Source: Candidatus Zhuqueibacterota bacterium (lineage in GTDB: Bacteria; Zhuqueibacterota; Zhuqueibacteria; Thermofontimicrobiales; Thermofontimicrobiaceae). Taken from it: DNA of 64,000 nucleotides. A model generated the notes under the pieces. That model saw nothing but the letters and a program-made list of their open reading frames with translations. It searched no databases and was not told the origin of the DNA. The stretch lies in contig JBMOPW010000004.1 in the NCBI GenBank assembly GCA_049322915.1, positions 99,343 to 163,342 on the forward strand. Direction: 5' to 3'. The position numbers were made by a program, and so were the translations under genes. Below, one piece after another: positions 47,828 through 64,000 of the stretch (the stretch's first letter is position 1; every line of letters begins with the position of its first letter).

Positions 47828-49012
47828 TTAGCGATCTGTATAAATTGTTTTGTTCCCAATGGTAATGGAGTTTTCTGTAACTGAAGGCCTTCCTTCTCCG
47901 TTTTTGAACAGGTCTACTATCTGGCCATATTTTTTCGTAATTGGAACAGATATTTTACGAACTGAGCTGCTTGTTTCAATTTTCAAAAACTCATCGAATA
48001 CATCATTCTTAATATATTCCATTTCAATGTGAGTTACCAATCCTGAAAGATGTCTTGTATGGAACCTGAACCAGAGGGTTTTATACTTTTGCCAGGCAAA
48101 TAATCGCACCGATGCGTTCTTTTGATGATCAGGATTCATTTGGTTAATGAGTTCAAAATAGTTTTTATCAATTTCTTCTTTTTGTGTTTGGTACAAATTA
48201 TGGTAACGGTCTGTCTGGGCCATCATCGCATCGAAACCCATATTGGAATAAATGGCAGGTTTATTTCGGTCGAGATAGTTCAGTATGCTGACAATTGTGT
48301 TGTATGATTTCGTAATCTCATTCTTCTTTGCAGACTCCTCTATTCTAATTTTTTCCATTTTGTTTTTTGCTTCATCAATATTCTGCCCGTTTGGGTATCT
48401 TTTTAAATACAAGTCAAATGAAGCAACCGAATTTTCTTTTGATGCTCTTGTGAAAAATTCATTTTCCGGGTATTCGAATGATGTGTCTGCCTTGGCTTTT
48501 TGATAGGAGACGTCGTATAGTTTTTCCTGGGCTTTGTTAGAATATTTACCTGAGGGATTTTTTTCTAAAAAGCCTTGGTAGGAAGTGATCGAATTGGTTT
48601 TGCGTGCTAACGAAAAATCCAATAACTCCTTGGCTTGGGACAAATAACTGTGTTGAGGATTTTTACTGATGAAATTTTTCAATGTATCGATATTGGGATT
48701 GGCTTCCAATAGGTTAAATTCGTATTTTTCTATTTTCAATTTTGCGCTATCGGTCCAGATTGTCCCCTCATTTTCTGTAATGAAATTTTTATACAATTTC
48801 AAATCAAAGGTATCTTTAATGCTTTCAAAATTGATTCGGGCAATTTCATTCCTGGCAGCAATTGCATACTTACCTTCCGGAAATTCTGAAAGAAAATTAG
48901 TGAATGCTTCCACCGTATTTATAGATTTCGCTTCATCGAAAGCTTTTTTAGATTTGCTGCATGAAAATAGAATAATAAATATGAGTAGAAAAATAAAATA
49001 TTTTGAACGCAT
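47828..49012 (-). CDS. Lipoprotein with five ~35-aa helical repeats
   Basis: Lipobox LFSC; repeats of F..A...N(T/S)...(F/Y)..FL...P.G.Y...A. Confidence 0.7.
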   Translation of the reverse strand: MRSKYFIFLLIFIILFSCSKSKKAFDEAKSINTVEAFTNFLSEFPEGKYAIAARNEIARINFESIKDTFDLKLYKNFITENEGTIWTDSAKLKIEKYEFNLLEANPNIDTLKNFISKNPQHSYLSQAKELLDFSLARKTNSITSYQGFLEKNPSGKYSNKAQEKLYDVSYQKAKADTSFEYPENEFFTRASKENSVASFDLYLKRYPNGQNIDEAKNKMEKIRIEESAKKNEITKSYNTIVSILNYLDRNKPAIYSNMGFDAMMAQTDRYHNLYQTQKEEIDKNYFELINQMNPDHQKNASVRLFAWQKYKTLWFRFHTRHLSGLVTHIEMEYIKNDVFDEFLKIETSSSVRKISVPITKKYGQIVDLFKNGEGRPSVTENSITIGNKTIYTDR

Positions 49013-49086
49013 GATAAGCTCCCTTAGCGTATTTTGGGAAATCTAAATGAAATCAGTTTTTAAGTCCTGAATTTTGAGATGATATT

Positions 49087-49791
49087 TTAAAACAAAAATC
49101 CCAGCTTCACCATCATCACCGAATTGGCAATCTCGGCTTCGTCCAGCACTGAACCCATTCCGCGATAGTAACGGGCGTCGGCGGTTATGCCAGACGGGAA
49201 TTCGATGCCAATGCCGAGGATATAGCCAAATTCGGTGCCTTCGAATTCATCGAAATCCTCTTCCTCCTGGTCGGAGTCGTCGCCGGAACTGACTTCAACC
49301 ATAAGTTTGGAACTGGACAAAAACGAAATCACCGGGCCGCCGAACAAAACAAATTGAGATGTGTAGCTCTGGTTCAGTTTTTTCAGTTTCAGGAGAAGCG
49401 GAATTTCGATATAGTTGAGCTTGTATACAATTTTTGTATCAAAGTTGTAACGCTCGCCTGTGTAATCATCCCTGAATGAAATATCACCGGAATAATTAGC
49501 GCCGCGCATGGTATAATTAAATTCAGGCTGGAGCACGAGCACGTCGTTCATTCGATATTGAAAAAAATACCCGAATGAGAATCCGAGCCGCGAACCTTTG
49601 GTGAACGATCCGCCGGACATGCCCATTTCGCTGAAAGCCGAGCTGAATGCATCGACCATTTCTTCAGCGTCCTTGCCTATCCAGTTAGCCATGTTAAAAC
49701 TGGATGAAATACCGTGTTTGATCGGCGAGGTTTGAGCAAAAGAGAGTGTGGCGCATAAGAGCAGAATTAGTGTGCAAGTAGTTTTCTTCAT
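49087..49791 (-). CDS. PorT/porin-family outer-membrane beta-barrel
   Basis: Signal peptide; LQPEFNYTMRG, LNYIEIPLLLK, GPVISF, DARYYRG; C-terminal Phe. Confidence 0.8.
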   Translation of the reverse strand: MKKTTCTLILLLCATLSFAQTSPIKHGISSSFNMANWIGKDAEEMVDAFSSAFSEMGMSGGSFTKGSRLGFSFGYFFQYRMNDVLVLQPEFNYTMRGANYSGDISFRDDYTGERYNFDTKIVYKLNYIEIPLLLKLKKLNQSYTSQFVLFGGPVISFLSSSKLMVEVSSGDDSDQEEEDFDEFEGTEFGYILGIGIEFPSGITADARYYRGMGSVLDEAEIANSVMMVKLGFLF

Positions 49792-50055
49792 TGTTTCTCC
49801 TAAGTCGGATAAACCGGAAATTGCAAAACTCAATAACCAAATAACATGCAAATTACAAAGCCAAATTTCAAAAAATCAAACTCGGACAGGTTCGTCTGGT
49901 TGTTCATTTTTGAAAAATGTTTGAAAATTGATATTTTGTAATTTGGAATTTATTTGATATCAGCTAAAGGCTTGTGCGTCCTCTGGCGCATTGAATTTTA
50001 TTTTTAAGGAACTAACATTTTTTTAAATATTTTCTCACTGAAATCAACTATTTTT

Positions 50056-50256
50056 CTAAATCCCTTCCCCTCGACTAATCGCTTCCATCACAATTCTTCT
50101 GGCGGCTCGGGCGCCACCGTCGTTGGGATTAAGCTGCAGCGCTTTTTCGTAGCAGGCCAATGCTTCACGATAGCGTTTCTGGTAGGCAAGGTCCTGTCCT
50201 TTGTAAAACCACTGTCTGGCTTCTTCTGCTAAATTGCCTTTGTTTTTAAAAAACAT
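50056..50256 (-). CDS. Small single-TPR protein
   Basis: WFYKGQDLAYQKRYREALACYEKALQLNPND; GGAGG RBS. Confidence 0.7.
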   Translation of the reverse strand: MFFKNKGNLAEEARQWFYKGQDLAYQKRYREALACYEKALQLNPNDGGARAARRIVMEAISRGEGI

Positions 50257-50444
50257 AATTTCCTCCAATAATGTTAACATATTCAATAGTTATTGTTTTA
50301 ATTATAAGTACATATTTTTGCACTGTACAGAGAAATGTCCAAAATAAAAAAGGAACTGGAAATTGGACTTTTCATTTCCCATTTTCCGGTTCCCAATTTT
50401 CCGTTAAACTAATTCAGAGGATTGTGCTCTTAGTTTCTATTTGA

Positions 50445-50921
50445 TTACTGAATACTGTCTCCTGTGGAAGAGAAATCCTTAACCAGGTGGCACTTGTCGA
50501 GTTTTTCCCTGCCTTCAACAGCGCTGAGAAGGACAAGATTAGTGCGGGCTTTCAGAAATCCCATTTTAACCTGCTGTTCCAGGTAATAGGTTTGGCCGGC
50601 TTTAAGATTCAGAATCTGCTCGCTCTTGTTTTCGGATTGGGACATCAATTGATGCCGGCCCGGGTCCAAAAGCATGTACAGGTAGCGTTGGCCGGTGGTG
50701 GTGCCCACTTTTTTATTGTCGCAGAAAACATCCATGCCCACGGCGAATCCGTATGTTGTGGGGCGAATAACGTACACGAGCGCTTTGTCTTCCGGCACGG
50801 CCACGGCTTTGGCGCGTTGATCCAGGGCAAGGTCTGCCTTGGGCATGGAACCGGCGCAGGAAAACAGAATCGAACATACAAAGAACAGGAAGAGTACGTA
50901 GATTAATTTTTGTCTTTTCAT
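50445..50921 (-). CDS. DUF2846-type lipoprotein
   Basis: Lipobox LFSCA; KALVYVIRP, LDPGRHQL, AGQTYYLEQ. Confidence 0.8.
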   Translation of the reverse strand: MKRQKLIYVLFLFFVCSILFSCAGSMPKADLALDQRAKAVAVPEDKALVYVIRPTTYGFAVGMDVFCDNKKVGTTTGQRYLYMLLDPGRHQLMSQSENKSEQILNLKAGQTYYLEQQVKMGFLKARTNLVLLSAVEGREKLDKCHLVKDFSSTGDSIQ

Positions 50922-51013
50922 CAGGTGCTCCATTTATCTTTAAGAAGCATGAAAACGATCGTTGCAAGCTGTTTGAATTTAGCGTATTCGATTTATTAAT
51001 TTTGTTTTGGAGA

Positions 51014-51628
51014 TTAGAAAAGGTACCGCATGTTCAACAGCACACCTTTGGAGTTGGGCACGTACGAAAATGAATATTTAAGATTTTCAGGAATGAAGCC
51101 GGATAAATTGCTTTCATTATAAATCGTTTCCCATTTATGCTGTGACGCGCCGTAAATTCCGCCGATGATCAAACCGCCGATGGTGAAACCAATGGTCATA
51201 TTTCGAATCACTTCATCGCCGTTGGTGACGGTTTCGCCGTTCATCAGGGCTTGATTTTCAGCGTCGTTCACGCCCTGCACAGCGCCGAGAAAACCGGACA
51301 ATCCGCCGATCAGCGCGCCCCAGATGGCGTATTCAGCAGCTTTTGTTCCGCGGCTGATTTTGATCAGGTAGACGTTATTGAGTCCGATATTTTCTTCATT
51401 GGAAATTATACCGGGGGCGGTGGCAGGTTTGAAGGTCAGCACGTCATCCAAAATGCTCAGGCTGTTGACATTGTACAGCGTGGTGGACTCGTCATTGAGG
51501 TAAATCATCGCTTTGGAGTACTGGTGGCTTCCCGGAAAGAATAATTCGGCGGAGGTTCCATTCTGAGAAAATGCCTGCACAGAAAGAGAAAGTAGAATGA
51601 GTAAAGAGAGCGTGATTTTTTTCTTCAT
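51014..51628 (-). CDS. Exported/membrane protein with glycine-zipper helices
   Basis: Signal peptide; GALIGGLSGFLG and GFTIGGLIIGGIYG. Confidence 0.65.
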   Translation of the reverse strand: MKKKITLSLLILLSLSVQAFSQNGTSAELFFPGSHQYSKAMIYLNDESTTLYNVNSLSILDDVLTFKPATAPGIISNEENIGLNNVYLIKISRGTKAAEYAIWGALIGGLSGFLGAVQGVNDAENQALMNGETVTNGDEVIRNMTIGFTIGGLIIGGIYGASQHKWETIYNESNLSGFIPENLKYSFSYVPNSKGVLLNMRYLF

Positions 51629-51855
51629 GTAGCGTTACTCCTGAAAAAAAATTATTAGTAAATGAAGTGATTTAGTTATTTTTAAATTTTTTCCGGATTG
51701 AAGTAAAACAAAGGCTGCTCAAATTCGAGATAATCCATTGAAATCGGATTTGTATGTTTGTTTCACGTATCTGAATAGAGCAGCTCTTTGCTCGATGTGA
51801 TGGAAGGTGCGGGTCCATCATCGTGTTAAAATGCATGAAGCATGTCAACGTAATG

Positions 51856-51884
51856 AAGACGTATGAGTTGTGAAGATTTTGCAA
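51856..51884 (-). promoter_or_regulatory. ECF-type promoter motif, copy C
   Basis: Minus strand TTGCAAAATCTTCACAACTCATACGTCTT. Confidence 0.7.
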
Positions 51885-52065
51885 AAAGTTTGAATTGATG
51901 TAAATATTTTAATCATTTGGTCTGGTCAATTATGTTTTGATGATGCGAATTTCCGATTCATACCATCAAATTCATGAGCGAGAAATTTGTACTCTTAATC
52001 CGGTTGATTCCCCGGAATTAGAGAACTGGTGGAAAGTGAGAATCGATTTCCCGCTAAGATCCAGA

Positions 52066-52380
52066 TTAATAGTTGCCGGACAAAAGAAGCTCCCATAAGG
52101 CATACCTCGCTCCGGTAGAACCGCATTGGGGGCATTTCATGGTGTCTCTTCGGGCTGAGTGAGGTTCACAATAGATTGTGCCACAATCGTAACAGGCAGC
52201 AAGTCCTGTGTGTCCGTGGGCGATATACCAGGTCGGTTTCTTTTGTTCAAACGTTGTCCGCCAGTTTGCGTCAACTTCGTATTCACACCAGTAATTGCAT
52301 TTGAAACATTCAGCGCGAAGTTTAATTGTTCTATTAGGACGAGCCAGATCTGCACCGTTTTGTCTTGTCTGAATATTCAT
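52066..52380 (-). CDS. Small Cys/His-rich Zn-binding protein
   Basis: CFKC...CYDCGTIYCEPH...CPQCG; GGAGA RBS. Confidence 0.6.
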   Translation of the reverse strand: MNIQTRQNGADLARPNRTIKLRAECFKCNYWCEYEVDANWRTTFEQKKPTWYIAHGHTGLAACYDCGTIYCEPHSARRDTMKCPQCGSTGARYALWELLLSGNY

Positions 52381-52481
52381 TGTTTATCTCCGGAATAATG
52401 TGTGCAATATTTTCACTATCAAGCTTTTAAAAAATGGTTTGGTATACCCACTAGGACTGCGTTTGGGTTTGGTTGCCAGAA

Positions 52482-52814
52482 TTACAAACTTCGAAATCCA
52501 TCCAGCGTTATTTTTGCTTTTTGATGTCCCTGCCGTGAAGCCTTTTCCATTAACTCCACCGCTTTATCGAAGCTCTGCGGAACACCCTCGCCGGCGCCAT
52601 AGAGCACGCCCAAATTAAACTGCGCTTCAGCGAGACCTTTGCCGGCAGCTTTCTTATACCAATACGCGGCCTCGCGTAAATCCTGATTGACTCCTTTGCC
52701 GTATTCGTAGGCTTCGCCAAGTTTATTCTGGGCAAGCGCATCGCCCTGTTCTGCTTTTTCTTTCAACGCCTGAATGTTGGTGCCGCCGAAGATTTTTTTG
52801 AAAAAATTTGACAT
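52482..52814 (-). CDS. Sel1-repeat protein
   Basis: AQNKLGEAYEYGKGVNQD...WYKKAA and AQFNLGVLYGAGEGVPQ. Confidence 0.85.
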   Translation of the reverse strand: MSNFFKKIFGGTNIQALKEKAEQGDALAQNKLGEAYEYGKGVNQDLREAAYWYKKAAGKGLAEAQFNLGVLYGAGEGVPQSFDKAVELMEKASRQGHQKAKITLDGFRSL

Positions 52815-52900
52815 GGGTTTGTCCTAGATTTTATTTTAGCTCTCGATTGTTATTACTTAAGATTTATGAAAACGGGCATACATGGAATTCGGTCGATTGA

Positions 52901-53809
52901 TTAACTTGTTTTTCGAACGATCCATCCCAATAAACCAAAGAGAAACTCGAGTCCGCCAAAAATGATCGCACCAATCCAGATGGTATGTTCAGCGATCGCG
53001 GTGGCGAATATTCCAAGCAATAAAATGCTAAGCCCGATTCCAATATGTTTGGTGAATTTTTGTAAATCATCGCCTTTTTTGATTACATCACGTTTTTCAA
53101 CATTGGTCGTAATTTCGGACTGGCAGGCAGGGCAAGTTTCAATCGAGTTAACGACCAGACTCCCGCACTTTGCACAATCGATGACATAGTCTTCATTTTC
53201 AGCTTTCCCATTTTCAGGTTTAGCGGATTTGAATTTCCGGGTGAGCAATGTCCTCGCTTCGGCGAATTTCTTTTTTTGCAGATCAGTAAAATCTATTGCA
53301 TAAAGTGAGCGCTTGTGCTTGCCTTTTTGCAGGGTGTCGCTACTCAGTATAAAATCGATACTCCCGGCGCCGGAACCCTTCACATTGAATAAAATAGCTT
53401 TGATTTCACTGAATAAAAATTCTTTGTCGATTTTATTTGGGATTAAATTCGAAGTTAAATTTAGCAGACCTGATGTGAGTTTACCGATTGCGCCGGAGCC
53501 GCCAGTTTTAATTTGAATTTTATTTTCATAAATGTGTAATTCAGTAAGCATACCTTTGGCGATAAGCAACGGCTCAGAATTATTGGGACTGGATTGCGGC
53601 TTTTCAGGCGCATGTTTCAAATTATCTTTTCGAATTGTTTCCTGAACAGGAATTTTCGATGTATCCCCCTTAAACAATTTCCCGCCACATTTTTCGTTAA
53701 ATTTTTTGGGATAGGATTGAACATTTTCATGAATTTCAGAACAGACTCCGATGCTACTGTCGTAATAGTCGCAATGGGGGCAGTAGTCTTCCATTGATAG
53801 GTTAGCCAT
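52901..53809 (-). CDS. Membrane-anchored protein with Cys-rich N-terminus, beta-rich (PH-like) middle domain and Zn ribbon
   Basis: CPHC..C..C; CAKC...CPAC; two C-terminal TM helices; GAGGGGAG RBS. Confidence 0.65.
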   Translation of the reverse strand: MANLSMEDYCPHCDYYDSSIGVCSEIHENVQSYPKKFNEKCGGKLFKGDTSKIPVQETIRKDNLKHAPEKPQSSPNNSEPLLIAKGMLTELHIYENKIQIKTGGSGAIGKLTSGLLNLTSNLIPNKIDKEFLFSEIKAILFNVKGSGAGSIDFILSSDTLQKGKHKRSLYAIDFTDLQKKKFAEARTLLTRKFKSAKPENGKAENEDYVIDCAKCGSLVVNSIETCPACQSEITTNVEKRDVIKKGDDLQKFTKHIGIGLSILLLGIFATAIAEHTIWIGAIIFGGLEFLFGLLGWIVRKTS

Positions 53810-54032: not shown

Positions 54033-54569
54033 CTAATTTTTCTGACTGCCGCCAACCTCCATATTCGCGATCTTCCGGCCCCGCAAATACAGCACGTACA
54101 CGCCTGCATCGAGATCGTCTATTTTGATTTCGCCGCCGGGGAGCACCGGGTAGCTGCACAAAAATTCACCTTTGGGGGAATAGATTTCCAGTTTGTCGTG
54201 AATGGTCTGCAATTTGAACGTGACGCGACCGCCATCATGAACCCACGGTTTTCCAAGCTCTTCCACCGGCGTGCTGCGCGTGGCAAACTGGAATGGCACA
54301 ATTTCAAGGCTGAGAATAATCTCTTTGGCTTTTGTCAGTGTATCTCTGACATGCGTCTTGCGTTTGACTACTTCTTTTCCAATTTCTTCGAACACCAGGT
54401 TTTTAATTTTCAATTGCAATTTATTCAATTGCCTTTTGTTCTCTCTGTTCAATTCCCTGTTTTGCTGCAAAAAATCTTTCAGCCCTAATCGGTCTAATTC
54501 TTTCTGAAGCTCGGAAATTAGTTTGTCTCTGGAATTTTCGTTTAAAAAATTCTCATCGTTTTTCATCAT
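54033..54569 (-). CDS. Soluble putative anti-sigma factor (helical N-terminus, small beta-sandwich C-terminus)
   Basis: Starts 10 nt after the sigma stop; no TM helix; FATRS linker; GEIKIDDLDAGVYVL motif. Confidence 0.55.
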   Translation of the reverse strand: MMKNDENFLNENSRDKLISELQKELDRLGLKDFLQQNRELNRENKRQLNKLQLKIKNLVFEEIGKEVVKRKTHVRDTLTKAKEIILSLEIVPFQFATRSTPVEELGKPWVHDGGRVTFKLQTIHDKLEIYSPKGEFLCSYPVLPGGEIKIDDLDAGVYVLYLRGRKIANMEVGGSQKN

Positions 54570-54579
54570 TTTTCCTCTG

Positions 54580-55158
54580 TTATATTTTTCCAAGTTTTTT
54601 CAATATGCAGCGAAATAGTTTTACCTTTTGCCTGTGCCAGATGCTTCCGGCAGTTGTGGGCGGGCAGTTGTTTCGTTGGGCAATTTTTTTCAGTGAAAAG
54701 CCATGAACATAGTCCAGCAGTATGTTTCGAATATGTTCCTGTGGAAAATTGCTGATACACGAATTCAGCGCCAGTTCCAGTTCGGCTTGTGTGATGAGCC
54801 CGGGAGACTCGGTTTGCTGCCAGTTTACAAATGAAACCAGGTCGATGTAACTCTCGCCATTGGCAGACTCGGAGTTTTGAAACATGGTGCCTGTTTTTTT
54901 TCTGCGCAGGTAATCGCAGAAAGCGTTTCGGCAACAAATGAACAGATAATCTTTGAAGCTTTTTATTTTTTTGCCGGCATTCACGGTTCGGATGATTTTC
55001 AAAAAGACGTTTTGCACTACATCTTCAATATCACCCCGATCGCGGATTTTATCGATGAAATAGGCGTACGTCCTCTCCAAATATCGCTGGAAGAGTTCAT
55101 TCAAAGATTCGATATCGCCAAGTTGCTGATATTTTTTAAGTAATTCTTCGTCTGTCAT
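54580..55158 (-). CDS. ECF RNA polymerase sigma factor
   Basis: MTDEELL, DIEDVVQNVFLKI, FKDYLFICCRNAFCDYLRR, GFSLKKIAQ. Confidence 0.88.
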   Translation of the reverse strand: MTDEELLKKYQQLGDIESLNELFQRYLERTYAYFIDKIRDRGDIEDVVQNVFLKIIRTVNAGKKIKSFKDYLFICCRNAFCDYLRRKKTGTMFQNSESANGESYIDLVSFVNWQQTESPGLITQAELELALNSCISNFPQEHIRNILLDYVHGFSLKKIAQRNNCPPTTAGSIWHRQKVKLFRCILKKLGKI

Positions 55159-55330
55159 GTTTTTTTTTGAATCGATTCATTGTGCTAATTTTTTGGATAG
55201 CCCCGGGGTGCGGCGATCCCCATTGGTCTTTACACAGATTTTCCATTGTGTCTGCTTCGGCCGCGAGCAAACGCAAAGATCGATTTGGCCTCCCGGGTAT
55301 TCCAATCGGGTTCTGTGGGTTCCGATTATA

Positions 55331-55359
55331 AAGACGTTTGAAACGGAAATATTTTTCAA
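55331..55359 (-). promoter_or_regulatory. ECF-type promoter motif, copy A (upstream of the sigma gene)
   Basis: Minus strand TTGAAAAA-N15-CGTCTT, same spacing as copies B and C. Confidence 0.55.
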
Positions 55360-57461
55360 AAATTTTGCCAGAGCGAAGGGAGCATCCAAAAAAGATGTCC
55401 GCTTTCCAGAAATCGGGCTTGGGCCGCCCATTTTAACCTTGTCTGCTGCAAGGCTTTGGAATACGAAAACTGGTTGGCAAACAGGTTCCAGTAAAAATCC
55501 ATGGAAAATTCGGCAGAGGCGCGGTCATCTGTGACGGACATATTCCCCAGAAATGCTTGCCCCCCGGCTTTTAAAAAAGCAGGAGCAAATCCACAGAAGG
55601 AAAGTGAGGTAGCATTATTTCCGGCGCTGTTGCAGCCGTTCAAATAGAAAAAAAGCGGAGGCGCAGATATTTCAGAAAATATATCATTTGCGGTCACGGC
55701 TTGTGCGCGACCTGATTTACACTGTTTTTCCCACAAAAAAATGTGTGTTTTCAGGGAAGCCGGGTCCGGGCTGCAATGCCCGGCGAAATGGATGATATGA
55801 AAATGATTCGATCTCAGTGATCTCATCACAGAACCGAAATCGGATTCGTGGGATAAAAGCGTGGAAATTTTCAGGCTCAGCCCGTGCTCCCTGGCAATTT
55901 TGTGGAACCGGTTTTTCAACAAAATTATTTCATTGTCCACAAATGGAATGTCCGGCGGCGTATCCGAAGCGATGAGCAAAATATTTATTGGGTCGTCCGT
56001 GGGGAAATGATAGACATCCGTCACCTTTCCATCGACCAGTGACCGATATATTGCTTTGCGCAGCGAAACGAAGGAGTCGCCGTTGTGGAGAATTTCAAAT
56101 GGAAATCGAATCAGTTCCTCGATTTCAGATGAAAAAACAAGGTCGCTATTCTTTTCTGTGGCGTAAAATTTACTGAATAAATCCAGAGAGTCCTGTGTTG
56201 GAAAAAGGTCTGAAAATAATTTTTGCCCAAGTTTTTTAAGCGATTGAATATTCCCGAAATCACTAATGATGTAGCGATGTGGATCGAGCGCATTATTCAA
56301 TTGGTGGACTTCAGTGATATCGCCGTTTTTGGACGTGCAGATTTTCTGAAATTCTTCCGTAAAAAAAATCTTCAATTTTTCTGAGGACTCGACACCGTAT
56401 TTAGGCGATTGGACTGATGGCGGCTGTTCGGAAATGTTCTCCGCGATCCAGGTCCTCAAGAAATAATTATTCAGGGCGAATTTTTGATCGGAATTTTGTT
56501 TTGCAAATCCCAGCCATGAGAGCGTGTTAAGCCGTTTTTGAATATGGTTGATTGAAATATTCAGTTTTGGTGCGATGGCTTCGATATAGGATGGTTCAAG
56601 ATGGATCAGGTTGGCAAGAATTTGATAATCCACCTGGTCAAAATATTGGAAGTCGTCTCTGAAAAAAAGGTCTAACACATTGTTTTGGCGAATGGTTTCA
56701 ATGGTGGCTTTTAGATTGCCCTGGTCAAAAAAGTAAAAACAAATCATTTGAACTAAAAAAGGCAGGCAGCCGGCAAATTCGATGATTTTATCCTGTTCCG
56801 CCACATCCCCAGTGCAGCGTCGAATGAGCGCCCGGGCTTCATCTTCGTCCCACGGCGTGATATAATCCGGGGGAGAGAACGCCTGCAAAAATGGCGCTAA
56901 AAAATGTGTGGTGCTGAGTTTGTCGTACGAGGCCAGACCATGATTGGAAGCCAAAATAACGGAAAGCATCGGCTGGTTCAAAAGAATGGCTCGGAATTGA
57001 TGCAGGAATTGTTCATCCTGCACAGCGACGCGAAACAATGCTTCGGACTCGTCGACCAACAACACAACGTGCACGGATTTTTTCCTGCACTGACGAATGA
57101 GGCAGCGAAGGTCCCAATAGAGGGATTCGCGTTCGAAGTGGTCGAGATCGAATTCAATTTCCAACCGGCTGAATTCAAATTCAGCCGGTTCGAGGGCGTC
57201 GATGAAGCTCAACTTCAAATCATAAACAGAATTAGCGCCGGACACATCCCAAAACAGAGGAATCATTCTGTCCTGTTTTCGGTACTGGCGCTGCAAGTAA
57301 CGGAGCAACGACGTTTTGCCCATGCGTCGCGCGCCAATGAGCCAGTTGAATTGCCGCTGTAAAGGCAGGTATTTTTGGATCAGGTCTTTACGGCCAATAA
57401 AGTCCGCGTCGTTTTTAATCCAGTCGCCGACGATAAACGGATTCTTTTGATATTCGGTCAT
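55356..57461 (-). CDS. STAND-like ATPase - winged helix - CHAT (caspase-like) protease
   Basis: NPFIVG...FIGR, Walker A GARRMGKTS, Walker B LLVDESE, GCLPF, wHTH; CHAT motifs FPFEILH, ILLIASD, IIHFAGH, FYLNGCNS, FSMDFY. Confidence 0.88.
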   Translation of the reverse strand: MTEYQKNPFIVGDWIKNDADFIGRKDLIQKYLPLQRQFNWLIGARRMGKTSLLRYLQRQYRKQDRMIPLFWDVSGANSVYDLKLSFIDALEPAEFEFSRLEIEFDLDHFERESLYWDLRCLIRQCRKKSVHVVLLVDESEALFRVAVQDEQFLHQFRAILLNQPMLSVILASNHGLASYDKLSTTHFLAPFLQAFSPPDYITPWDEDEARALIRRCTGDVAEQDKIIEFAGCLPFLVQMICFYFFDQGNLKATIETIRQNNVLDLFFRDDFQYFDQVDYQILANLIHLEPSYIEAIAPKLNISINHIQKRLNTLSWLGFAKQNSDQKFALNNYFLRTWIAENISEQPPSVQSPKYGVESSEKLKIFFTEEFQKICTSKNGDITEVHQLNNALDPHRYIISDFGNIQSLKKLGQKLFSDLFPTQDSLDLFSKFYATEKNSDLVFSSEIEELIRFPFEILHNGDSFVSLRKAIYRSLVDGKVTDVYHFPTDDPINILLIASDTPPDIPFVDNEIILLKNRFHKIAREHGLSLKISTLLSHESDFGSVMRSLRSNHFHIIHFAGHCSPDPASLKTHIFLWEKQCKSGRAQAVTANDIFSEISAPPLFFYLNGCNSAGNNATSLSFCGFAPAFLKAGGQAFLGNMSVTDDRASAEFSMDFYWNLFANQFSYSKALQQTRLKWAAQARFLESGHLFWMLPSLWQNF

Positions 57462-57478
57462 AGGTTCAGATTCAGAAT

Positions 57479-60400
57479 TCAGTTCGTTGTAAAATCGGTC
57501 CAGTGGCTTGCTGATTTTTCAGGTTTCAATTGCGTCTTCGAATTTTTTAGAATGTTTATAACGTCCTGTTTTTTTATGGTTCGGCGATGTTCATCCAGCG
57601 CCTGGTTGATTAGATTCAGGCACAGCACCTGGATCAGATAGGGCTTGCATTTGGTGGCCTCCAATATGGCTTCCAGGGCTTCGTTTTTAAATTTGAATAT
57701 TCCCTTCACCGGCACATAGATAAGCTTTTTTGCGTCTTCCCGGGAGATTGGTTTTAATTCAATTAATGTGAAAAGATTCCACCAGGGGCTTTCCGGGCGA
57801 TTCCAGTTATTAATGTAAGAAGTGCCGGAAATAATGGCGGCGAAATTCATGGAAAATTCCTGCATGAAAATTCGGCGCAGTTGTGCATGGATCGCCTGGT
57901 CGTATTGGTTCATGGCATCGGCTTCATCGATGAGAAGTACGATTTTAACCGTTTTAATCGTACTTTGATTCATGTGAAAAATTATCTTCCGGAAATCATT
58001 ATTAAAATCGCGGTAGTTGTAGTTATCTTTTTTATCCTGAATTCGAAGGCCACAGTCTTTTGGTACATTGTCCACCTGTTCAACAATATCGTGCATCATG
58101 CCGTGAAAAAACTCCCACTGACCAATGCCCTGCAAATCTACAAACACCGGGATGAATTTGTAATCCGGATCATTTTTTTCCGTGAGCTGGTTTTTAATCT
58201 GCAACAAAAGCGAGGTTTTACCAATTCTCCGTTCGCCGGTTATCATGATGCTGTTGTTGTGCACGATGGAAAGAATTCGGTTTTGGATTTCGTTTCTTCC
58301 AAAAAAAAGATTTTGTTTGAAAATGGGTTCACCGGCAATATACGGATTGAACCGGCGCCGGCGAATGAGTTGATTGATTTTGTAATAACGATAAATGAAG
58401 AAGAGAGCGATTAGCGCCAGAACCAGGCTGAATAAAAACCACTTGAACCAAAAACGTAAAATTAGCGGTGTCGTTTCCAAATGAATTTGGACTGAAGCGA
58501 ATTCCGATGACATGAGTCCATTGGGAGTTGCTGTTTTAATTTCAAAGGTGTGATTTCTGCCAGGCTCTAATTCTGTGTAAATTATTCTGTTATTGCGGGT
58601 GAATTCGCTCCATTGGCCCGGTTTTTCATCCTTGATAATTCGATAGGAATATCGCAATGCCTGTGAAGGAAACGACGAATGGTAGCCGAAAAATTCTATG
58701 GCGCAGACAGGGTCATTATAACTGCGAAAGATAGGGCGCTGCAATGCTGATTCTTCGTAAATGTCATTGCCGATCTGGCAGTTTCGTATGGTGATGACAG
58801 GTGGGATGGATTGCATTTGAAACTGGAGGAGTTCACCCTCAAGGGTGATGCCGGTTATCTTGTTTTTATCGTCACACAAAAAATTCGGAGAGAAAACATC
58901 GTCAAATTTACTATGAAAATCGATTTCAGGGAAAGCGTAAAGGTTCCCGTTGTCAAAATAACTTAAACCGTAGTTCGAGGCGAGAATTGGCTGGCCATAA
59001 GAATCGAAGCCAATGCTTTTTATGTTGCTGCTAATTACTTTTGAATTACTGCCCCAATGCGTGCACGTATCGCCTTTCAAAAACGCGATGCCTTCATCTA
59101 CTGAAAGCACCCAGAGAGAGCTGTCCCTTGCCGGATGCAGTGAAAGAAGGTTTGAAATTTTTTCAATGGATGGATTCGATACAGTTCTGAAAACATCGTC
59201 CTCCAGAACAGCAATGCCGGTGTTGTACGTAGCAACCCACACTGTGCCATCGAGCGTTTCGGCAATGTCGACGATTTCATGACCCGGCAGTCCCTGGTCA
59301 ACCGAATACCGCGTTAATGTGTTTCCATCCCAGCAAGCCAGGCCGGGGCTGATCAACCTTTCATGCTCCAGGAAAAAGTCCCTGAAATTTAACGACTTTC
59401 CCATGAACGCTTCTCTCAAGTGAGCATCGGACAAAATGCACTCCCGGGGCAGAAATTCGAATTGCTTCCCATCCAATCGCGCGTAATCCGCATTGCGAAG
59501 GCACACGTATAGTTGATTATCGCTGCTCTCACCTATTCCCCAAATGGACGGATGGGGCAGGTTTTCTTTATAAATTCTGATTCCATTTTTTTGGAGCAAG
59601 ACCAATCCATTGTCCAGCGTTCCCATCCAAAAATTACCGGCGTTATCTTCGTAAAATGTAGAGATGGAGCGACCCGCATTTTTCATGGCGTGACTCTGGT
59701 AAAATCTGCCATCTTTCCACATGAACAAACCAAAATCCAGGGTTCCAACAAACAAATCACCGCTTTTGCTTCGGTGCAATGCGGAAATTTTATGGGATGG
59801 CATTCCAAAGTCGCTGTTGTAATGGATGAGCGTGTCCTGGTTTACATAGAATAATCCAACGCTGTAGCTGCCAACCCATGCGCCGTTATCCGGATCATTG
59901 TTTATTGACGAAATATTATAAATATTTTTTCCCTGGGATTTTTTATAATTCCTGTTTGAATTAAAAGAATAAAAGCAATTGGTATTGTAGAAAAAATCAC
60001 CGTGGCTCCATTCAAATTGATCCGCGAGACCGGAGTCATAAATTTCAGGGATTTGAAATGAAAATCCGAGTATGTTAATCTTGTTTTTCGGAATGTCAAA
60101 TTTGAATATGCCGCGGAGAAGAGTTCCCCAGAGTTCGTTATTCAACAAGTGGAGATTTTGGATGTTGTAATAATAGGATCCGGTAAATTGAAGCCATGGT
60201 TTTTGGGTGAATTGGGAATTCTCCGATTTGAACAATGTGCTCGATCTGGTGCCAAACCAGACTGTGTTGGTTTCATCCACAAGCTGTGAAGTTACGATAA
60301 CTTCAGGTGAAAAGGAATGGTGCTCGGCGAATTCGGAATATTCAATTATCGGGGATTTGGGATTATTCAAATGCATGAGATATGAGTGCGCGCCGATCCA

Positions 60401-61744
60401 AAGTCGGTTTTGGGAGTCGACGAAAATGGTGGAGATGCATTTCGCTGGAAATTCACTTTCCGGAATTGGTCTGTCGAATTTTTCCCCATCCCAGCGAAGA
60501 ATGCCATTCCCTAACGTAGCGAACCAAAAATTTTCATCGTAATCCTGGGCGCAGTCCGTCACTTTAATGTTTTTAAGGCTGTCGGGCCATATAAATCGCG
60601 AGTTTTTCTGACCATCGAAATAATAGATTTGATTTGCGCCATAGCTGAACCAGACTTTGCCTGATTTGTCTTCGAAAATCAAATTATTATTTAGAATTTC
60701 GTATGGCGAGGGATTTGTTGCCTGCGAAGGTATTGGATAGGAACTGATTTGTGGATTTAGGTATTTATAAATACCCGTTGAAGTAGCAAACCAAATATTT
60801 TGAAACCTGTCCTGGAACATGGTTCCACGTTCAGTATTTACGATCGAAAAATTGTGAAGCTCATTATTTTCCATGCAATAAATTGATTCATTTTTTAAAA
60901 ACCAGATCCTGCCCTGTAAATCCTCCATGAAAAAGTCGAAATAATAACCCCCTGAAAAAATATTTTGTGTTTGAAAAACTGTCTTAAGCTCCGGGAACTG
61001 TAAAATTTTGTTGCGTGTTAGAATGAGTGAATATTTTTCATCTTTGCTCACGAAATAGCTTAGAATGTGTTGATTATTTTTGAGAAGTGGGGTTAGATTA
61101 TTTCGATCCTGTTCACTAAAGAGGTAAACCCCGGAACGTGCATAAAAGAAATGATAGTTCTGATCATCGATTTGGAAAATTTGGAGGATATCATCCCGAA
61201 GCAAATCATATTTTTCAGTGAGATTAATGCATTCTGTTCCATCAAATCGAAATAACCCAACGTGGTTGACGTCAATCCATATCCGTTCGTTTCGATCTTT
61301 GAAAAGGGAGGTGAAATGCTCTTTTCGGAAAAAAGAATTGAATTCGAATGGATAAAGCGATTCGAAATCATATATCCAAATGCCCTCGTAATTAATCGCA
61401 ATCCAAAGTTTGCCCTCATCATCCTTGATTACTTTCTGGATGAATAACGATGGAAGCTTTTCGTTGATTTCCAGTGGAATGAATTGCAGACCGTCATACC
61501 GATAAATACCGTCGTTAATGGTGACGATAAGGAGGTTGCCTTTATTGTCTTCCAAGACGTGCCGAATTTCATTTGTTGGCAAGCCGTTACTTGTTGTGAA
61601 ATGCGTCCACAGGGAAGGATTGGAAATGGGATTTTCTGCTCCGATTGCCGGGGCTAAAAAGAACAAGGTGCCTGAAAAACCAAAAAGCAGAAATCGAAAG
61701 AAAATGAAGAATGCTTTAGCGAACATATTCCGAATAAATTTCAT
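57479..61744 (-). CDS. Transmembrane receptor: beta-propeller (Reg_prop) repeats + YYY domain + TM helix + cytoplasmic STAND-like ATPase
   Basis: Signal peptide; many D..G.lWigT..G repeats (GLPTNEI, GMPSHKI, GLPGHEI); LRYSYRI...W...YTELEPG YYY domain; TM helix; NPYIAG...FFGR, GERRIGKTS, LLIDEAD. The start is uncertain (61843, 61744 or 61726). Confidence 0.88.
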   Translation of the reverse strand: MKFIRNMFAKAFFIFFRFLLFGFSGTLFFLAPAIGAENPISNPSLWTHFTTSNGLPTNEIRHVLEDNKGNLLIVTINDGIYRYDGLQFIPLEINEKLPSLFIQKVIKDDEGKLWIAINYEGIWIYDFESLYPFEFNSFFRKEHFTSLFKDRNERIWIDVNHVGLFRFDGTECINLTEKYDLLRDDILQIFQIDDQNYHFFYARSGVYLFSEQDRNNLTPLLKNNQHILSYFVSKDEKYSLILTRNKILQFPELKTVFQTQNIFSGGYYFDFFMEDLQGRIWFLKNESIYCMENNELHNFSIVNTERGTMFQDRFQNIWFATSTGIYKYLNPQISSYPIPSQATNPSPYEILNNNLIFEDKSGKVWFSYGANQIYYFDGQKNSRFIWPDSLKNIKVTDCAQDYDENFWFATLGNGILRWDGEKFDRPIPESEFPAKCISTIFVDSQNRLWIGAHSYLMHLNNPKSPIIEYSEFAEHHSFSPEVIVTSQLVDETNTVWFGTRSSTLFKSENSQFTQKPWLQFTGSYYYNIQNLHLLNNELWGTLLRGIFKFDIPKNKINILGFSFQIPEIYDSGLADQFEWSHGDFFYNTNCFYSFNSNRNYKKSQGKNIYNISSINNDPDNGAWVGSYSVGLFYVNQDTLIHYNSDFGMPSHKISALHRSKSGDLFVGTLDFGLFMWKDGRFYQSHAMKNAGRSISTFYEDNAGNFWMGTLDNGLVLLQKNGIRIYKENLPHPSIWGIGESSDNQLYVCLRNADYARLDGKQFEFLPRECILSDAHLREAFMGKSLNFRDFFLEHERLISPGLACWDGNTLTRYSVDQGLPGHEIVDIAETLDGTVWVATYNTGIAVLEDDVFRTVSNPSIEKISNLLSLHPARDSSLWVLSVDEGIAFLKGDTCTHWGSNSKVISSNIKSIGFDSYGQPILASNYGLSYFDNGNLYAFPEIDFHSKFDDVFSPNFLCDDKNKITGITLEGELLQFQMQSIPPVITIRNCQIGNDIYEESALQRPIFRSYNDPVCAIEFFGYHSSFPSQALRYSYRIIKDEKPGQWSEFTRNNRIIYTELEPGRNHTFEIKTATPNGLMSSEFASVQIHLETTPLILRFWFKWFLFSLVLALIALFFIYRYYKINQLIRRRRFNPYIAGEPIFKQNLFFGRNEIQNRILSIVHNNSIMITGERRIGKTSLLLQIKNQLTEKNDPDYKFIPVFVDLQGIGQWEFFHGMMHDIVEQVDNVPKDCGLRIQDKKDNYNYRDFNNDFRKIIFHMNQSTIKTVKIVLLIDEADAMNQYDQAIHAQLRRIFMQEFSMNFAAIISGTSYINNWNRPESPWWNLFTLIELKPISREDAKKLIYVPVKGIFKFKNEALEAILEATKCKPYLIQVLCLNLINQALDEHRRTIKKQDVINILKNSKTQLKPEKSASHWTDFTTN

Positions 61745-62055
61745 CAAGCAAAGCAGTAAAATGAACGACAGAAAAGAACTAAGGCTAAAAAAAATAGGAA
61801 ATAAAGACATGGAAATGGTAATAAAAATTTGTCTAAAAATCAAGGAAAAAGTTTTTCATTACTGGGTTTTTTATAGATCAGCCAGGTTCTATGCGTAACA
61901 TTTTAAAATTATATAAGATAGACTTTTTCTCTTGTATCTCACATTATTTAATCAAATCTTCTGCAAAGAATCTCACTTAATTTAGCCAAAATTTAATTTC
62001 CACTTTAGTTGTTTTTTTCTTATCTTGTTTCTGTCAATCAACAAAATAGACTTTT

Positions 62056-62640
62056 ATGGATGAAAAAAACGTGAACAGATCGCCCTGTTTCGCTATAGCC
62101 TGATCGTGCCGTTTCTTTCACACGAAGAGTTGCAACGGGGTGTCAAAGGCGAACTGTCGCAGCGCATGGTAAGGCAAATTCACACCATTCCCCATTCACA
62201 AAAATCTTAATTGGCCGAATCGACCATCCGTCGTTATCTTCGCTGCTACCGCAACAAGGGATTTGATGGCTTTAAACCGAAAAGCCGCAGCGATAGCGGC
62301 ACATCCCATAAAATCGACGGCGATACCCTGGAAAAAGCGTTTCTGTTGAAAAAAGAAGAACCACACCGCAGCTCGAAAAAGATTATTCAACTCATGGAAG
62401 CTCACCAGTGGGCGCCGTTGGGGTTGTTAAAGCCCAGTACACTGTCGCGGATTTTTAAGCAGCATGGTCTAACTTTCAAACAACTCAAACAGTCCCATAA
62501 AAGCTTTCGCGCCTTTCAGGCCGAACACCCAATCAAATATGGCAGTCGGATATTATGTATGGACCGTATCTGCCCGATCCTGAGCGACCCGCCGCTAAAA
62601 AACGAACCTATCTGGTGGCGATCCTGGATGATTTTTCCCG
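62056..62640 (+). mobile_element. Degenerate DDE transposase (IS481/Mu-like) fragment
   Basis: REQIALFRYSLI, STIRRYLRCYR...PKSRSD, WQSDIMYGP and LVAILDDFSR; frameshifts near 62065 and 62530, in-frame TAA at 62208; truncated at the repeat. Confidence 0.8.
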
Positions 62641-63158
62641 ACACAACGCTGAAAGAAATGGCGGTGCGCCAGCCGAAAACATGGAGCGAACTGAGTTCCA
62701 TCGTGGGCATGGGACAGTCGAAATTGAAGCGCTATGGTCTATGGTTTTTGAAAGAAATTCTGGCCTATCGCCAGGGCCAGGTCGCGCTGGGACATGCCGC
62801 ATCCGCTGCGCACGCCGGCTCAGGGCGGACAGAACTGCCCACAGAGCAGACAACGCTCCGGATGCTTCAACAGGGATTATCGCCGGAACAGGTGGCGGAA
62901 GAAAGAGCTATTTCGGCTCGAACTGTGTACCACCATATCGAGACCCTCATTCTGTCCGGTGAGAATCTCATTCTGGATAGGTTTTTGCCTTCCGACAAAC
63001 ACCGCGTGATCCGCAAGGTGCTGCATCAGTTAGGCGTGGATGATCTGGACAAAGTCCAGGCGCGTTTGGGCGACGGCTATTCCCGCCATGAGATTCGGCT
63101 GGTGCGGGCGAAAATGATCGCGGAGAAAAGGACGCGATCCAATGAAACGTGATCAGCC
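62629..63158 (+). repeat. 530-bp direct repeat, copy 2 (recQ 3' fragment)
   Basis: About 97% identical to 40905-41434 by manual count. Confidence 0.95.
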
Positions 63159-64000
63159 CGCGGCCCTGTGATGCAGGCGCTTTAAGAACTGCACGATCCC
63201 CCGGAACCGGAAATCCCCTTCTTCACCGCTTTTCGACCACCGCTGTCATAAGTGTACATCCGATTTGTCACGCACCCGACGAGTTCGCTATTTCGTTATG
63301 TTCATTATTGAACGATGCGCCGGGCGATTCAGATTGGCGAGAAAAAAAGAGCGGCTGCATGCTCTTTCAGGGTGATTTATTTTGCTATTTCGTTAAAAAA
63401 GACTTGATTTATTTACATAAAAGTATATATTCAACATAGACCTCACGCAACTCAATTCTCTGGCTATCATGTCTTCAATAAATTGCTCGATTCTTCATTT
63501 CGACTTTTGGATGAGGGTGTAATTTAAAATTCCAGATATTGTAGTTACATTTTCAATCGAATCTTTCAATACATGAATGTGCATCGTGGTGCGAATTCTC
63601 CGGAAAGTAACGCAACCATTTTGACTTGACGGGAATCTCTTCAGATGTCAGATTTTACCTGTTTAGAAAAGCAACATACGGTGTTAGAATTTTAGTAGAT
63701 ATCGGCTCCATAATAAAAACTATCTTTCTGTATAACATTCTTTTTTGGGCGTGATGCGGTCAGTCTAATATCCTGAGACATAGAAAATCATTTCACAAAA
63801 GGCACTGTTTCTATTGTTGTTCTGTGCCGCCGTATTTACCTGTTCCGGGATGTTATGCAGAAACTGTATAATTACTTGTTGCACATAGTAGCAAGCTACA
63901 AGTCTATAAATTAAAATAAGATATAATGAGTTATTCAATTTACTATATGATAGTATAGCCATTATGTCGTCATGTCGAGCACATTCATCTAAAACAGTCG

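Follow-up and report, generated by a model that had tools for sequence, protein, structure and literature searches.

What do a membrane-spanning receptor, a protease and a sigma factor do together in a single gene cluster? The question is raised by a 64,000-nt window (the whole stretch of DNA that was analysed, from contig JBMOPW010000004.1 of a Candidatus Zhuqueibacterota genome), in which a preliminary description had read four co-oriented genes separated by 17, 197 and 10 nt. The open reading frame (ORF) map bears out this layout, with all four genes on the minus strand, as are the features described below unless noted. They are g1, a receptor ATPase (57479-61843; 1454 aa counted from TTG 61843); g2, an ATPase fused to a CHAT protease domain (55356-57461; 701 aa); g3, an extracytoplasmic function (ECF, group IV) sigma factor (54580-55158; 192 aa); and g4, a soluble candidate anti-sigma factor and predicted sigma-binding partner (54033-54569; 178 aa). 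The first two were assigned by ORF and Pfam, g3 by Pfam and NCBIfam, and g4 by its ORF and its predicted complex with g3. The domains originally named for g1, g2 and g3 were all recovered by hidden Markov model annotation (Pfam, NCBIfam).

We give about even odds, a probability of roughly 0.5, to the reading that these genes form one signalling unit, in which the receptor ATPase and the ATPase-CHAT protein free the sigma factor by cutting g4. Domain content, the conservation of the cassette and its promoter, the predicted sigma-g4 complex and the pairing and fusion of the ATPases are supported by computation; the nature of the ligand, the hetero-assembly of the ATPases, the activation of CHAT, g4 as its substrate and the cleavage site are what we infer beyond them. 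The cassette is conserved, has apparently not been described before, and joins protease-gated control of an ECF sigma factor to a STAND-like effector switch.

The four genes had been expected to recur together, and their order is kept in three of three independent orthologous metagenome loci (L067, L068 and L069=L070). Orthologous loci are here those of a metagenome scan that include the CHAT part; four were returned, and they count as three because L069 and L070 carry identical sequence. L070 comes from a different lineage, since its GC content is 50% against about 42% here; its proteins are 34% (g1), 34% (g2), 45% (g3) and 40% (g4) identical to those of the window, the order is unchanged, and g1 and g2 overlap by 10 nt. 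L068 carries g2-g3-g4 on a contig that begins within g2, and L067, cut by the contig end, has g2 between the 3′ part of g1 and the first part of g3. Past the four genes, no neighbor is common to the window and the orthologous loci.

Homologs of the STAND-CHAT protein form 29 clusters (32-87% identity, 28 full length) in a collection of 5.8 billion proteins; all are rare metagenomic sequences, two of them named candidate division KSB1. Orthologs of g3 form 20 clusters besides its own, and the g4 family 17 clusters of 165-178 aa. If equal size of the longest contigs marks the same contig, as we suppose, CHAT clusters pair with g4 clusters in six cases (sizes 17530, 5180, 12630, 8291, 10068 and 33477) and with sigma clusters in seven (10531, 5180, 20092, 5769, 10068, 12630 and 5156), and sigma and g4 clusters coincide in five. 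Among the 16 g4 clusters other than that of the window, six match a CHAT cluster in this way and two more a sigma cluster; wherever its context is known, the g4 family is met solely with the cassette.

The receptor gene g1 has an ambiguous start codon, either TTG 61843 or an in-frame ATG at about 61810 or about 61744, and from the last of these the N-terminus would be of classical signal-peptide-like type. A hydrophobic segment near the N-terminus (residues 44-69; 61637-61714), ending in AIGA/E, can be read as a signal peptide or as a first transmembrane helix. It is followed by a predicted extracytoplasmic sensor (residues 70-1125; 58469-61636) of Reg_prop beta-propeller repeats and a Y_Y_Y immunoglobulin (Ig)-like domain, by the single later transmembrane helix (residues 1126-1156; 58376-58468) with the basic stretch RYYKINQLIRRRR after it, and by a cytoplasmic P-loop ATPase (residues 1160-1454; 57482-58366) whose Walker motifs are GERRIGKTS (A) and LLIDE (B). 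The hydropathy scan, with its N-terminal segment, one transmembrane helix and basic stretch, thus places the propeller region of about 1050 residues outside the cell and the ATPase inside. In Pfam the Reg_prop match is far above its cut-off (E 3.3e-31; 103.8 bits against 20.4), Y_Y_Y at residues 1060-1121 scores 25.7 bits, 0.9 under its cut-off of 26.6, and the C-terminal P-loop module scores 35.0 bits with AAA_22 (cut-off 27) and 28.8 bits with ATPase_2, under 33.2; no nSTAND profile matched g1 at E<=0.01. Reg_prop repeats, then Y_Y_Y, then a transmembrane helix is the order of periplasmic sensors of the hybrid two-component system (HTCS) type. The sole solved relative of the ectodomain found by sequence is 4a2l/4a2m (E 3.1e-14), whose entry title is 'two-component system sensor histidine kinase/response' and which we take to be a Bacteroides hybrid two-component glycan sensor. 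The g1 ortholog of L070 is 34% identical across residues 80-1439, and its ATPase module 53% identical.

In g2, an ATPase with helical and winged-helix parts (residues 1-345; 56427-57461; model pLDDT 82) precedes the CHAT protease domain (residues 405-701; 55359-56249), which was delimited by Pfam and fold matches. The Pfam match to CHAT (PF12770, residues 411-683) has E 2.3e-18 and 67.1 bits against a cut-off of 24; together with a His-Cys dyad, formed by His562 (55776-55778, in an AGH motif) and Cys610 (55632-55634, in an NGC motif), and a caspase-like fold, it places g2 in the CHAT family. Fold matches of this half are Csx29 (8eey_B, 8eex_B), DdvA (8rot_A), separase (7nj1_A) and SAVED-CHAT (8tl0_C), at Foldseek E-values of 1e-10 to 1e-6 (8eey_B 9.7e-11, 8rot_A 4.3e-10). 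All 20 aligned orthologs keep His562 and Cys610, Lys49 of Walker A, Asp137-Glu138 of Walker B, and G23 and R24, and the constancy of the Walker motifs and the dyad is counted in favor of a g2 that would be catalytically competent. The genome of the window has seven further CHAT-domain matches (contigs C14, C35, C19 and C45), including one within a 2829-aa frame (C14) and one within a 1363-aa frame (C45).

The two ATPase modules had been described as sharing motifs, and both do carry them: NPYIAGEP...FFGRNE in g1 and NPFIVGDW...FIGRKD in g2, GERRIGKTS and GARRMGKTS, and VLLIDEAD and VLLVDESE, with the common pattern NP[YF]..G, F.GR..[DE], G.RR.GKTS and hhhh-DE. They are paralogs (24% identity, E 2e-13). 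Their place in the STAND class is borderline by profile. Walker A and B are intact in g1 (GERRIGKTS, LLIDE) and g2 (GARRMGKTS, LLVDE), the core has helical and winged-helix parts, and before the P-loop lies a motif of the hhGRExE type (FFGRNE in g1, FIGRKD in g2) that reportedly belongs to the definition of STAND. On the other side, g2 scores 31.9 bits with AAA_22 and 22.7 bits with the curated nSTAND1 profile, under the 27.1 cut-off of the latter, and the best fold matches of its core are the archaeal ATPase_2 AAA+ proteins 2qen and 2fna (TM-score by target 0.67 and 0.62; Foldseek); Orc1/Cdc6, RuvB and, at rank 10, the NRC4 resistosome (an NLR) come after them. In view of this order of folds, STAND-like AAA+ is the safe label for the g2 core. 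Some relatives do pass an nSTAND cut-off (P0130, 38.6; the g1-like protein of L116, 32.6; P0091, 30.6).

The pairing of these ATPases extends well past the cassette. Among 64 fetched loci with a g2-type ATPase (E<1e-20), 52 have at least 900 nt of upstream sequence, and in 48 of the 52 a g1-type ATPase lies within 400 nt upstream on the same strand, a count that is descriptive and not a statistic because the loci are related to one another and were collected through one common P-loop pattern. The four exceptions are L015, L047, L049 and L067; in the last the end of g1 is present, but 720 nt upstream. Paired loci come from Vicinamibacteria (Acidobacteriota), Caldilineae (Chloroflexota) and the class of the window itself, and the upstream partners are 35-53% identical to the cytoplasmic module of g1, or 35-44% when the L070 ortholog (53%) is set apart. 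The topology recurs in all seven g1-like partners examined, with a hydrophobic segment at the N-terminus, a TPR/Ig or Reg_prop ectodomain and one transmembrane-like segment that ends about 20-35 residues before the ATPase. One metagenomic protein, P0130 (1874 aa), holds in a single chain Reg_prop/Y_Y_Y, a hydrophobic transmembrane-like stretch (read by eye from the sequence) and two ATPases, first one of g1 type (35% identity, E 1e-58) and then one of g2 type (27%, E 1e-25). Because the genes are adjacent, overlap translationally in L070 and are fused in P0130, these comparative signs suggest that the two ATPases work together physically, and the idea of a sensor ATPase with a helper has strong comparative support. 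The C-terminal domain of P0130, of about 270 aa, belongs to no Pfam family.

The wider family was surveyed with phmmer, using g2 residues 1-345 as query against 1.84 billion representative proteins, and gave 1104 matches at E<=1e-3, of which 300 reach E<=1e-10 and 36 reach E<=1e-30. A gap in the scores sets 10 clusters of full-length CHAT orthologs and one 280-aa fragment (E<=1.5e-78) apart from all others (E>=1e-43). Pfam domains were then sought in 64 of the 150 matches listed, those long enough for an extra domain, leaving out the CHAT orthologs and short proteins. As outputs, 16 of the 64 carry a Ser/Thr kinase, 8 an OmpR-type Trans_reg_C domain (two with FHA), 6 TIR, 4 a fused ECF sigma factor, 3 trypsin, 3 CHAT (P0199 has CHAT and TIR and is counted under both), 2 SIR2, 2 PNP_UDP, and 1 each PP2C/SpoIIE, HEPN, caspase C14 and the Reg_prop double-ATPase fusion P0130; the rest have the ATPase alone, or FHA or TPR. 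The six best-scoring of the 64 include four with a kinase and one with an N-terminal OmpR-type domain. The four sigma fusions are P0089 and P0133, in which the ATPase is joined to Sigma70_ECF (PF07638), P0092, with sigma region 4 only, and P0090, also counted among the kinases, with the order ATPase, Ser/Thr kinase, ECF sigma. Since ATPase and sigma factor are directly fused in such proteins, the sigma factor should lie downstream, not upstream, of the ATPase. ATPase-ECF sigma fusions are not described in the literature searched, and the main text of PMC7826278 does not mention ATPases.

Three genomes of the same class as the window have a related and conserved three-gene unit consisting of a FadL/TodX-like outer-membrane protein, a TPR-transmembrane-ATPase protein and an ATPase-Ser/Thr kinase protein (L116, 5499-11051; L117, 6334-11954; L118, 3082-8757); in L117 and L118 a divergent GAF-sigma54 activator adjoins it. 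The cassette had been called kinase-free, and this holds for the cassette of the window, but not for its family, where a quarter of the relatives scanned (16/64) end in a Ser/Thr kinase. On these domain comparisons the ATPase pair reads as a chassis with swappable input and output, of which the cassette would be the version with CHAT plus sigma/anti-sigma output. Carried further, and at rather less than even chances, the cassette may represent one output version of a modular class of transmembrane signalling that has so far gone unrecognised and is built on two paralogous P-loop ATPases, with the signal passed by nucleotide-dependent hetero-assembly. In such a class the receptor would consist of an exported sensor (Reg_prop/Y_Y_Y or TPR/Ig), one transmembrane helix and ATPase A, and ATPase B would be a cytosolic transducer with a swappable output ranging from CHAT to TIR/SIR2; the sensor-helper logic of NLRs would then be driven from outside the cell, for gene regulation and immunity, with no phosphotransfer.

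The sigma arm has its own conserved features. The g3 protein scores 37.8 bits with Sigma70_r2 (Pfam, cut-off 24) and 66.4 bits with the sigma70-ECF model TIGR02937 (NCBIfam, cut-off 42.9), and its profile aligns best, across both sigma domains, to Escherichia coli sigmaE (1or7; positions 1-184) and Bacillus subtilis SigW (5wuq). Having regions 2 and 4 only, and a family profile above cut-off, it is an ECF sigma factor; its scores with the NCBIfam equivalog and subfamily models are all far under the cut-offs. The hydropathy scan found no transmembrane-like segment in g3 or g4. Across g3 and 18 aligned orthologs, Cys76, Cys134, Cys165 and Cys184 are invariant, which is unusual for ECF sigma factors; they might form a metal or redox site. 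In the predicted complex described below g4 touches Cys76 and residues flanking Cys134 and Cys184, and Cys165 has no contact residue nearby.

Upstream of g3 lies the promoter-like motif TGAAAA-N16-CGTCT (55332-55358), the first three bases of which are the g2 stop codon. Alignment of the g2-g3 spacers gives the conserved form TGAAAAAT-N-GTTT-N-AAACGTCT-N-T(T/A)AAT, which is exact in the window and matched by 0 of 100 shuffles. It stands directly upstream of g3 in all four loci (the window, L067, L068 and L070), abutting the g3 start codon in L067 and L068, and in L070, where it has diverged slightly (TGGAAAAT...CCGTCTCTTAAT), overlapping the end of g2. The motif resembles ECF promoters of the SigW type, whose consensus we take to be TGAAAC-N16-CGTA. 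A conserved promoter before a sigma/anti-sigma pair, as this one before g3-g4 appears to be, is the usual signature of a positively autoregulated operon. We found no copy of the motif upstream of g1, and a looser pattern has one other site in the window (589-615). Scans of the cassette for sigma-70 promoters and terminators returned fewer sites than in shuffles.

The abutting position of the motif in L067 and L068 would suggest leaderless transcripts there. In the window a leader of about 170 nt (55159-55331) separates the motif from the g3 ATG; it is relatively GC-rich and is absent in L067 and L068. It was considered as a miniature inverted-repeat transposable element and rejected, being single-copy in the genome, with no Rfam match and no unusual fold (z -0.79). 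At E<=1 Rfam did not match the leader; its two snoRNA rows fall in other parts of the stretch and are chance matches. The spacer between g2 and g3 is long in L067 (3095-3440) and has two copies of a short palindromic element (CGAATTCATTCGGGTGT), which may be small inserted repeats.

The small protein had been proposed to bind the sigma factor, and structure prediction agrees: g3 and g4 are predicted to form a complex with an anti-sigma-like clamp at ipSAE 0.72, where the best of three controls scored 0.00. Three runs gave 0.74, 0.72 and 0.71, with at least 80% of contacts in agreement and partner pLDDT of at least 77; the mark applied admits 116 of 157 solved complexes and, among mismatched pairs, 2 of 215, a calibration that holds only roughly here because custom alignments of 19 and 18 sequences were used. 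Modelled on its own, g4 consists of helices 11-35 and 42-78, a strand (82-90), a loop (91-106) with the invariant residues P92-F93 and R98 (PFxxATR98), and a confident beta-sandwich (107-172). In the complex, g4 residues 7-84, with the two long helices, contact sigma residues 9-77 (region 2) and 120-192 (region 4), and the invariant g4 loop 107-111 (PW.HD) touches the conserved sigma N-terminus at 14-16, where G14 is invariant and D15 nearly so. The model supports a g4 that binds g3 by clamping regions 2 and 4. In the family alignment the loop and beta-sandwich are more conserved than the sigma-binding N-terminal helices, and by analogy this layout invites the idea that the loop may be where CHAT cuts. 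A search for solved relatives of g4 gave nothing below E 0.2 with a sequence profile against the PDB and nothing at E<=0.001 with Foldseek against the PDB, and no family matched it in Pfam, NCBIfam or PADLOC. Its beta-sandwich (54033-54251), with a GVY.L.L motif, resembles C-terminal sorting domains of the type IX secretion system (T9SS; Por_Secre_tail) in Atlas feature and structure searches, with all scores sub-threshold (0.85; TM-score 0.34-0.43) and no signal peptide in g4; it could represent that fold redeployed in the cytoplasm.

Around the cassette, a profile scan of nine ORFs (47828-53809 and 62211-63439) found that envelope proteins, not defence genes, adjoin it. Divergent from g1 is an ORF on the plus strand (62211-63152) with HTH_28, HTH_29 and HTH_32 domains (transposase-type helix-turn-helix, HTH), HRDC and HTH_40; it sits in a stretch of higher GC (0.49) and may be a mobile-element remnant beside the cassette. 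Downstream of g4, a 302-aa ORF (52901-53809) has only weak matches, to a zinc-ribbon-like stretch (TackOD1 and HNH_5, both under cut-off), and is not kept in the orthologous loci. A tandem-repeat search found no CRISPR-like array across the 64-kb window, and no Cas family matched the nine neighbor ORFs or eight ORFs of L070 (3292-17514). PADLOC gave no match for g2, g3 or g4, and for g1 a weak P-loop match only.

Read as one signalling unit, the cassette would work as follows. The Reg_prop/Y_Y_Y ectodomain of g1 would sense a cue from outside the cytoplasm, probably a glycan or some other ligand near the envelope, and the signal would pass through the one transmembrane helix to change the state of the cytoplasmic ATPase. 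That ATPase would engage its g2 paralog in a nucleotide-dependent hetero-assembly, which would bring the CHAT protease into its active state. At rest g3 would be held by g4, the two N-terminal helices of which would clamp sigma regions 2 and 4; active CHAT would cut g4, most likely at the invariant exposed loop near Arg98, between the sigma-binding helices and the beta-sandwich. The freed sigma factor would transcribe a regulon that includes its own g3-g4 operon, from TGAAAA-N16-CGTCT, and so amplify itself.

Several results weigh against this scheme. The ATPase pair needs no protease or sigma factor intrinsically, since the second ATPase of Vicinamibacteria and Chloroflexota carries no effector domain and adjoins no sigma factor. 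TIR (6), SIR2 (2), PNP (2), HEPN (1), trypsin (3) and caspase (1) domains are found in more distant relatives among the 64 scanned. The cassette is patchy, as 46 loci fetched from some 185,000 species genomes include no full-length ortholog, a same-genus genome (G001, 94% complete) gives no match, 12 same-family genomes give weak partial matches only, and no full-length g2 ortholog is found in 40 relatives of the genome. Neither Pfam nor NCBIfam recognises an anti-sigma domain in g4, which does not belong to the zinc-binding anti-sigma (ZAS, class I) type; having a single Cys, it lacks the HxxxCxxC zinc motif. Since sigma/anti-sigma complexes have been solved, part of the sigma-g4 score may be likeness to known structures. 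No regulon was found in the 6.25-Mb genome, in which the exact promoter motif occurs once; three sites with one mismatch all lie within long ORFs, and the reversed-pattern control gave one.

The effector domains and the patchy distribution would also suit a system of biological conflict or phage defence, in which the ATPase pair detects an invader or envelope damage, CHAT is broad-acting or toxic or activates such an effector, and the sigma/g4 pair is an accessory branch as in Craspase. TIR, SIR2, PNP, HEPN, trypsin, caspase or CHAT effectors occur in 18 of the 64 scanned relatives of the g2 ATPase, profile matches lead to the conflict-system families nSTAND1/2, the cassette is absent from the same-genus genome searched, a gene whose HTH domains are transposase-like is found immediately upstream, and the known CHAT-sigma links (Craspase, SAVED-CHAT and DdvA) are all defence-associated. 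We nevertheless find this role unlikely: most of the top-scoring relatives carry signalling outputs, as do many of the 64 (kinase 16, OmpR-type 8, ECF sigma 4, PP2C 1), the exported Reg_prop/Y_Y_Y sensor is of a type used in solute and glycan sensing, PADLOC finds at most a weak P-loop match in g1 and nothing in g2, g3 or g4, and the neighbors are envelope proteins in a window with no CRISPR-like array.

The conserved promoter before g3, apart from g1-g2, raises another possibility, that g3-g4 are an ordinary autoregulated ECF pair, independent of the ATPase genes or controlling them, and that CHAT acts elsewhere, in auto-processing of g1/g2 or on unlinked substrates. ECF pairs are very common as neighbors, ATPase pairs without a sigma factor exist, and the recognition of g4 by CHAT is our conjecture. 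This reading fits poorly with the lack of a sigma promoter motif upstream of g1, with a g1-g2-g3-g4 order kept down to 34% identity while all other neighbors differ, with a g4 family met solely with the cassette where context is known, and with the ATPase-ECF sigma fusions that place sigma downstream, so that we hold this to be quite improbable. A different function for g4 seems to us more doubtful still: it could be an adaptor or co-activator that presents sigma to CHAT, with sigma itself then processed or degraded, or a tether to the ATPase assembly, so that activation turns transcription off or shifts its specificity. The loop and beta-sandwich, not the sigma-binding helices, are its most conserved part, the invariant loop 107-111 contacts a conserved and unusual sigma N-terminus in the model, and the four invariant sigma cysteines have no assigned role. 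The predicted contacts, however, extend over the surfaces of both sigma2 and sigma4, like those of inhibitory anti-sigma complexes, the conserved promoter of autoregulatory type fits a logic of release and amplification, and the precedent of Csx30 is inhibitory.

The single signalling unit that we favor has relatives in several known systems. It resembles STAND/NLR systems (apoptosome, NAIP-NLRC4, Avs, nSTAND) in g2, where a P-loop NTPase and helical and winged-helix modules are joined to an effector of the caspase superfamily, in the paired logic of sensor plus executor, in NRC4 among its fold matches and in hhGR.x[DE] before Walker A, which we take to be a STAND-defining feature. STAND/NLR sensors are cytosolic repeat domains and their output is cell death, whereas the g1 sensor is extracytoplasmic and membrane-anchored and the output of the cassette would be a specific regulatory cleavage. 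With the Bacteroides hybrid two-component sensors (4a2l/4a2m) g1 shares the type and order of the ectodomain, with Reg_prop propellers, Y_Y_Y and a single transmembrane helix, but the histidine kinase, receiver and AraC parts are replaced by a P-loop ATPase, and the cassette has no phosphorelay component. The RseA/DegS/RseP and RsiW systems have in common with the scheme proposed here an envelope signal, anti-sigma proteolysis and the release of an autoregulated ECF sigma factor, and the g3 profile matches sigmaE and SigW; unlike RseA and RsiW, g4 is soluble with no transmembrane helix, the cassette has no site-1 or site-2 protease, the receptor ATPase crosses the membrane, and the protease is a cytoplasmic CHAT.

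In type III-E Craspase, the TPR-CHAT protein Csx29 cleaves Csx30, an inhibitor of an ECF sigma factor (CASP-sigma/RpoE); the N-terminal domain of Csx30 binds sigma, and cleavage is further C-terminal (PMC10028731). A cytoplasmic CHAT protease, an ECF sigma factor, a soluble sigma-binding inhibitor and sigma autoregulation would all have counterparts in the cassette, and g4 is like Csx30 in having its sigma-binding part N-terminal and a separate conserved part C-terminal. The activator is RNA-guided Cas7-11 in Craspase; in the cassette it would be a receptor ATPase that spans the membrane, together with the ATPase module fused to CHAT. The protein g2 lacks the TPR arm of Csx29, and neither a CRISPR array in the window nor a Cas family in the neighbor ORFs scanned ties the cassette to a Craspase locus. 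By sequence, the g4 profile finds no relative among solved chains, those of Csx30 included. DdvA of Myxococcus xanthus is a transmembrane anti-sigma factor with a periplasmic TPR-CHAT domain, the partner DdvS, a zinc-binding cytoplasmic anti-sigma domain and a proposed RseP-dependent intramembrane proteolysis (PMC11506125). It also ties CHAT to ECF sigma release along an envelope-spanning signal path, and it is a fold match of g2 (8rot_A); its CHAT domain is periplasmic and within the anti-sigma factor, whereas that of g2 is cytoplasmic and fused to an ATPase, g4 is separate and soluble, and the membrane part is the receptor ATPase.

Three CHAT-sigma links are described in the portions of the literature searched (Craspase Csx29/Csx30/CASP-sigma, a type III-B SAVED-CHAT cascade, and DdvA), and in what is described of them none has a receptor ATPase, a fused ATPase-CHAT protein or a g4-like partner. 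Within the same portions there is no description of a paired receptor-ATPase/transducer-ATPase module, although the supplements of PMC7826278 could list such neighborhoods. The main text of that ECF re-classification paper (PMC7826278) mentions no CHAT, caspase, AAA, ATPase or propeller, though its supplements could list some, and the main text of a conflict-systems paper (eLife 2020; PMC7159879) has no CHAT, nSTAND or relevant sigma passage.

If the reading of the cassette as one signalling unit is true, it would be a third route from a signal outside the cell to a sigma factor, besides phosphorelay and regulated intramembrane proteolysis. It would separate CHAT-controlled sigma release from CRISPR, and would place sensor-helper pairing in the style of NLRs at the membrane. 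A small orthogonal set of sigma factor, anti-sigma factor and protease could serve as a switch in synthetic biology. The paired-ATPase family of Acidobacteriota, Chloroflexota and the lineage of the window, whose outputs include kinases, sigma factors, DNA-binding domains and death effectors, would add to the census of prokaryotic signal transduction, and may be a bridge between signalling and immunity.

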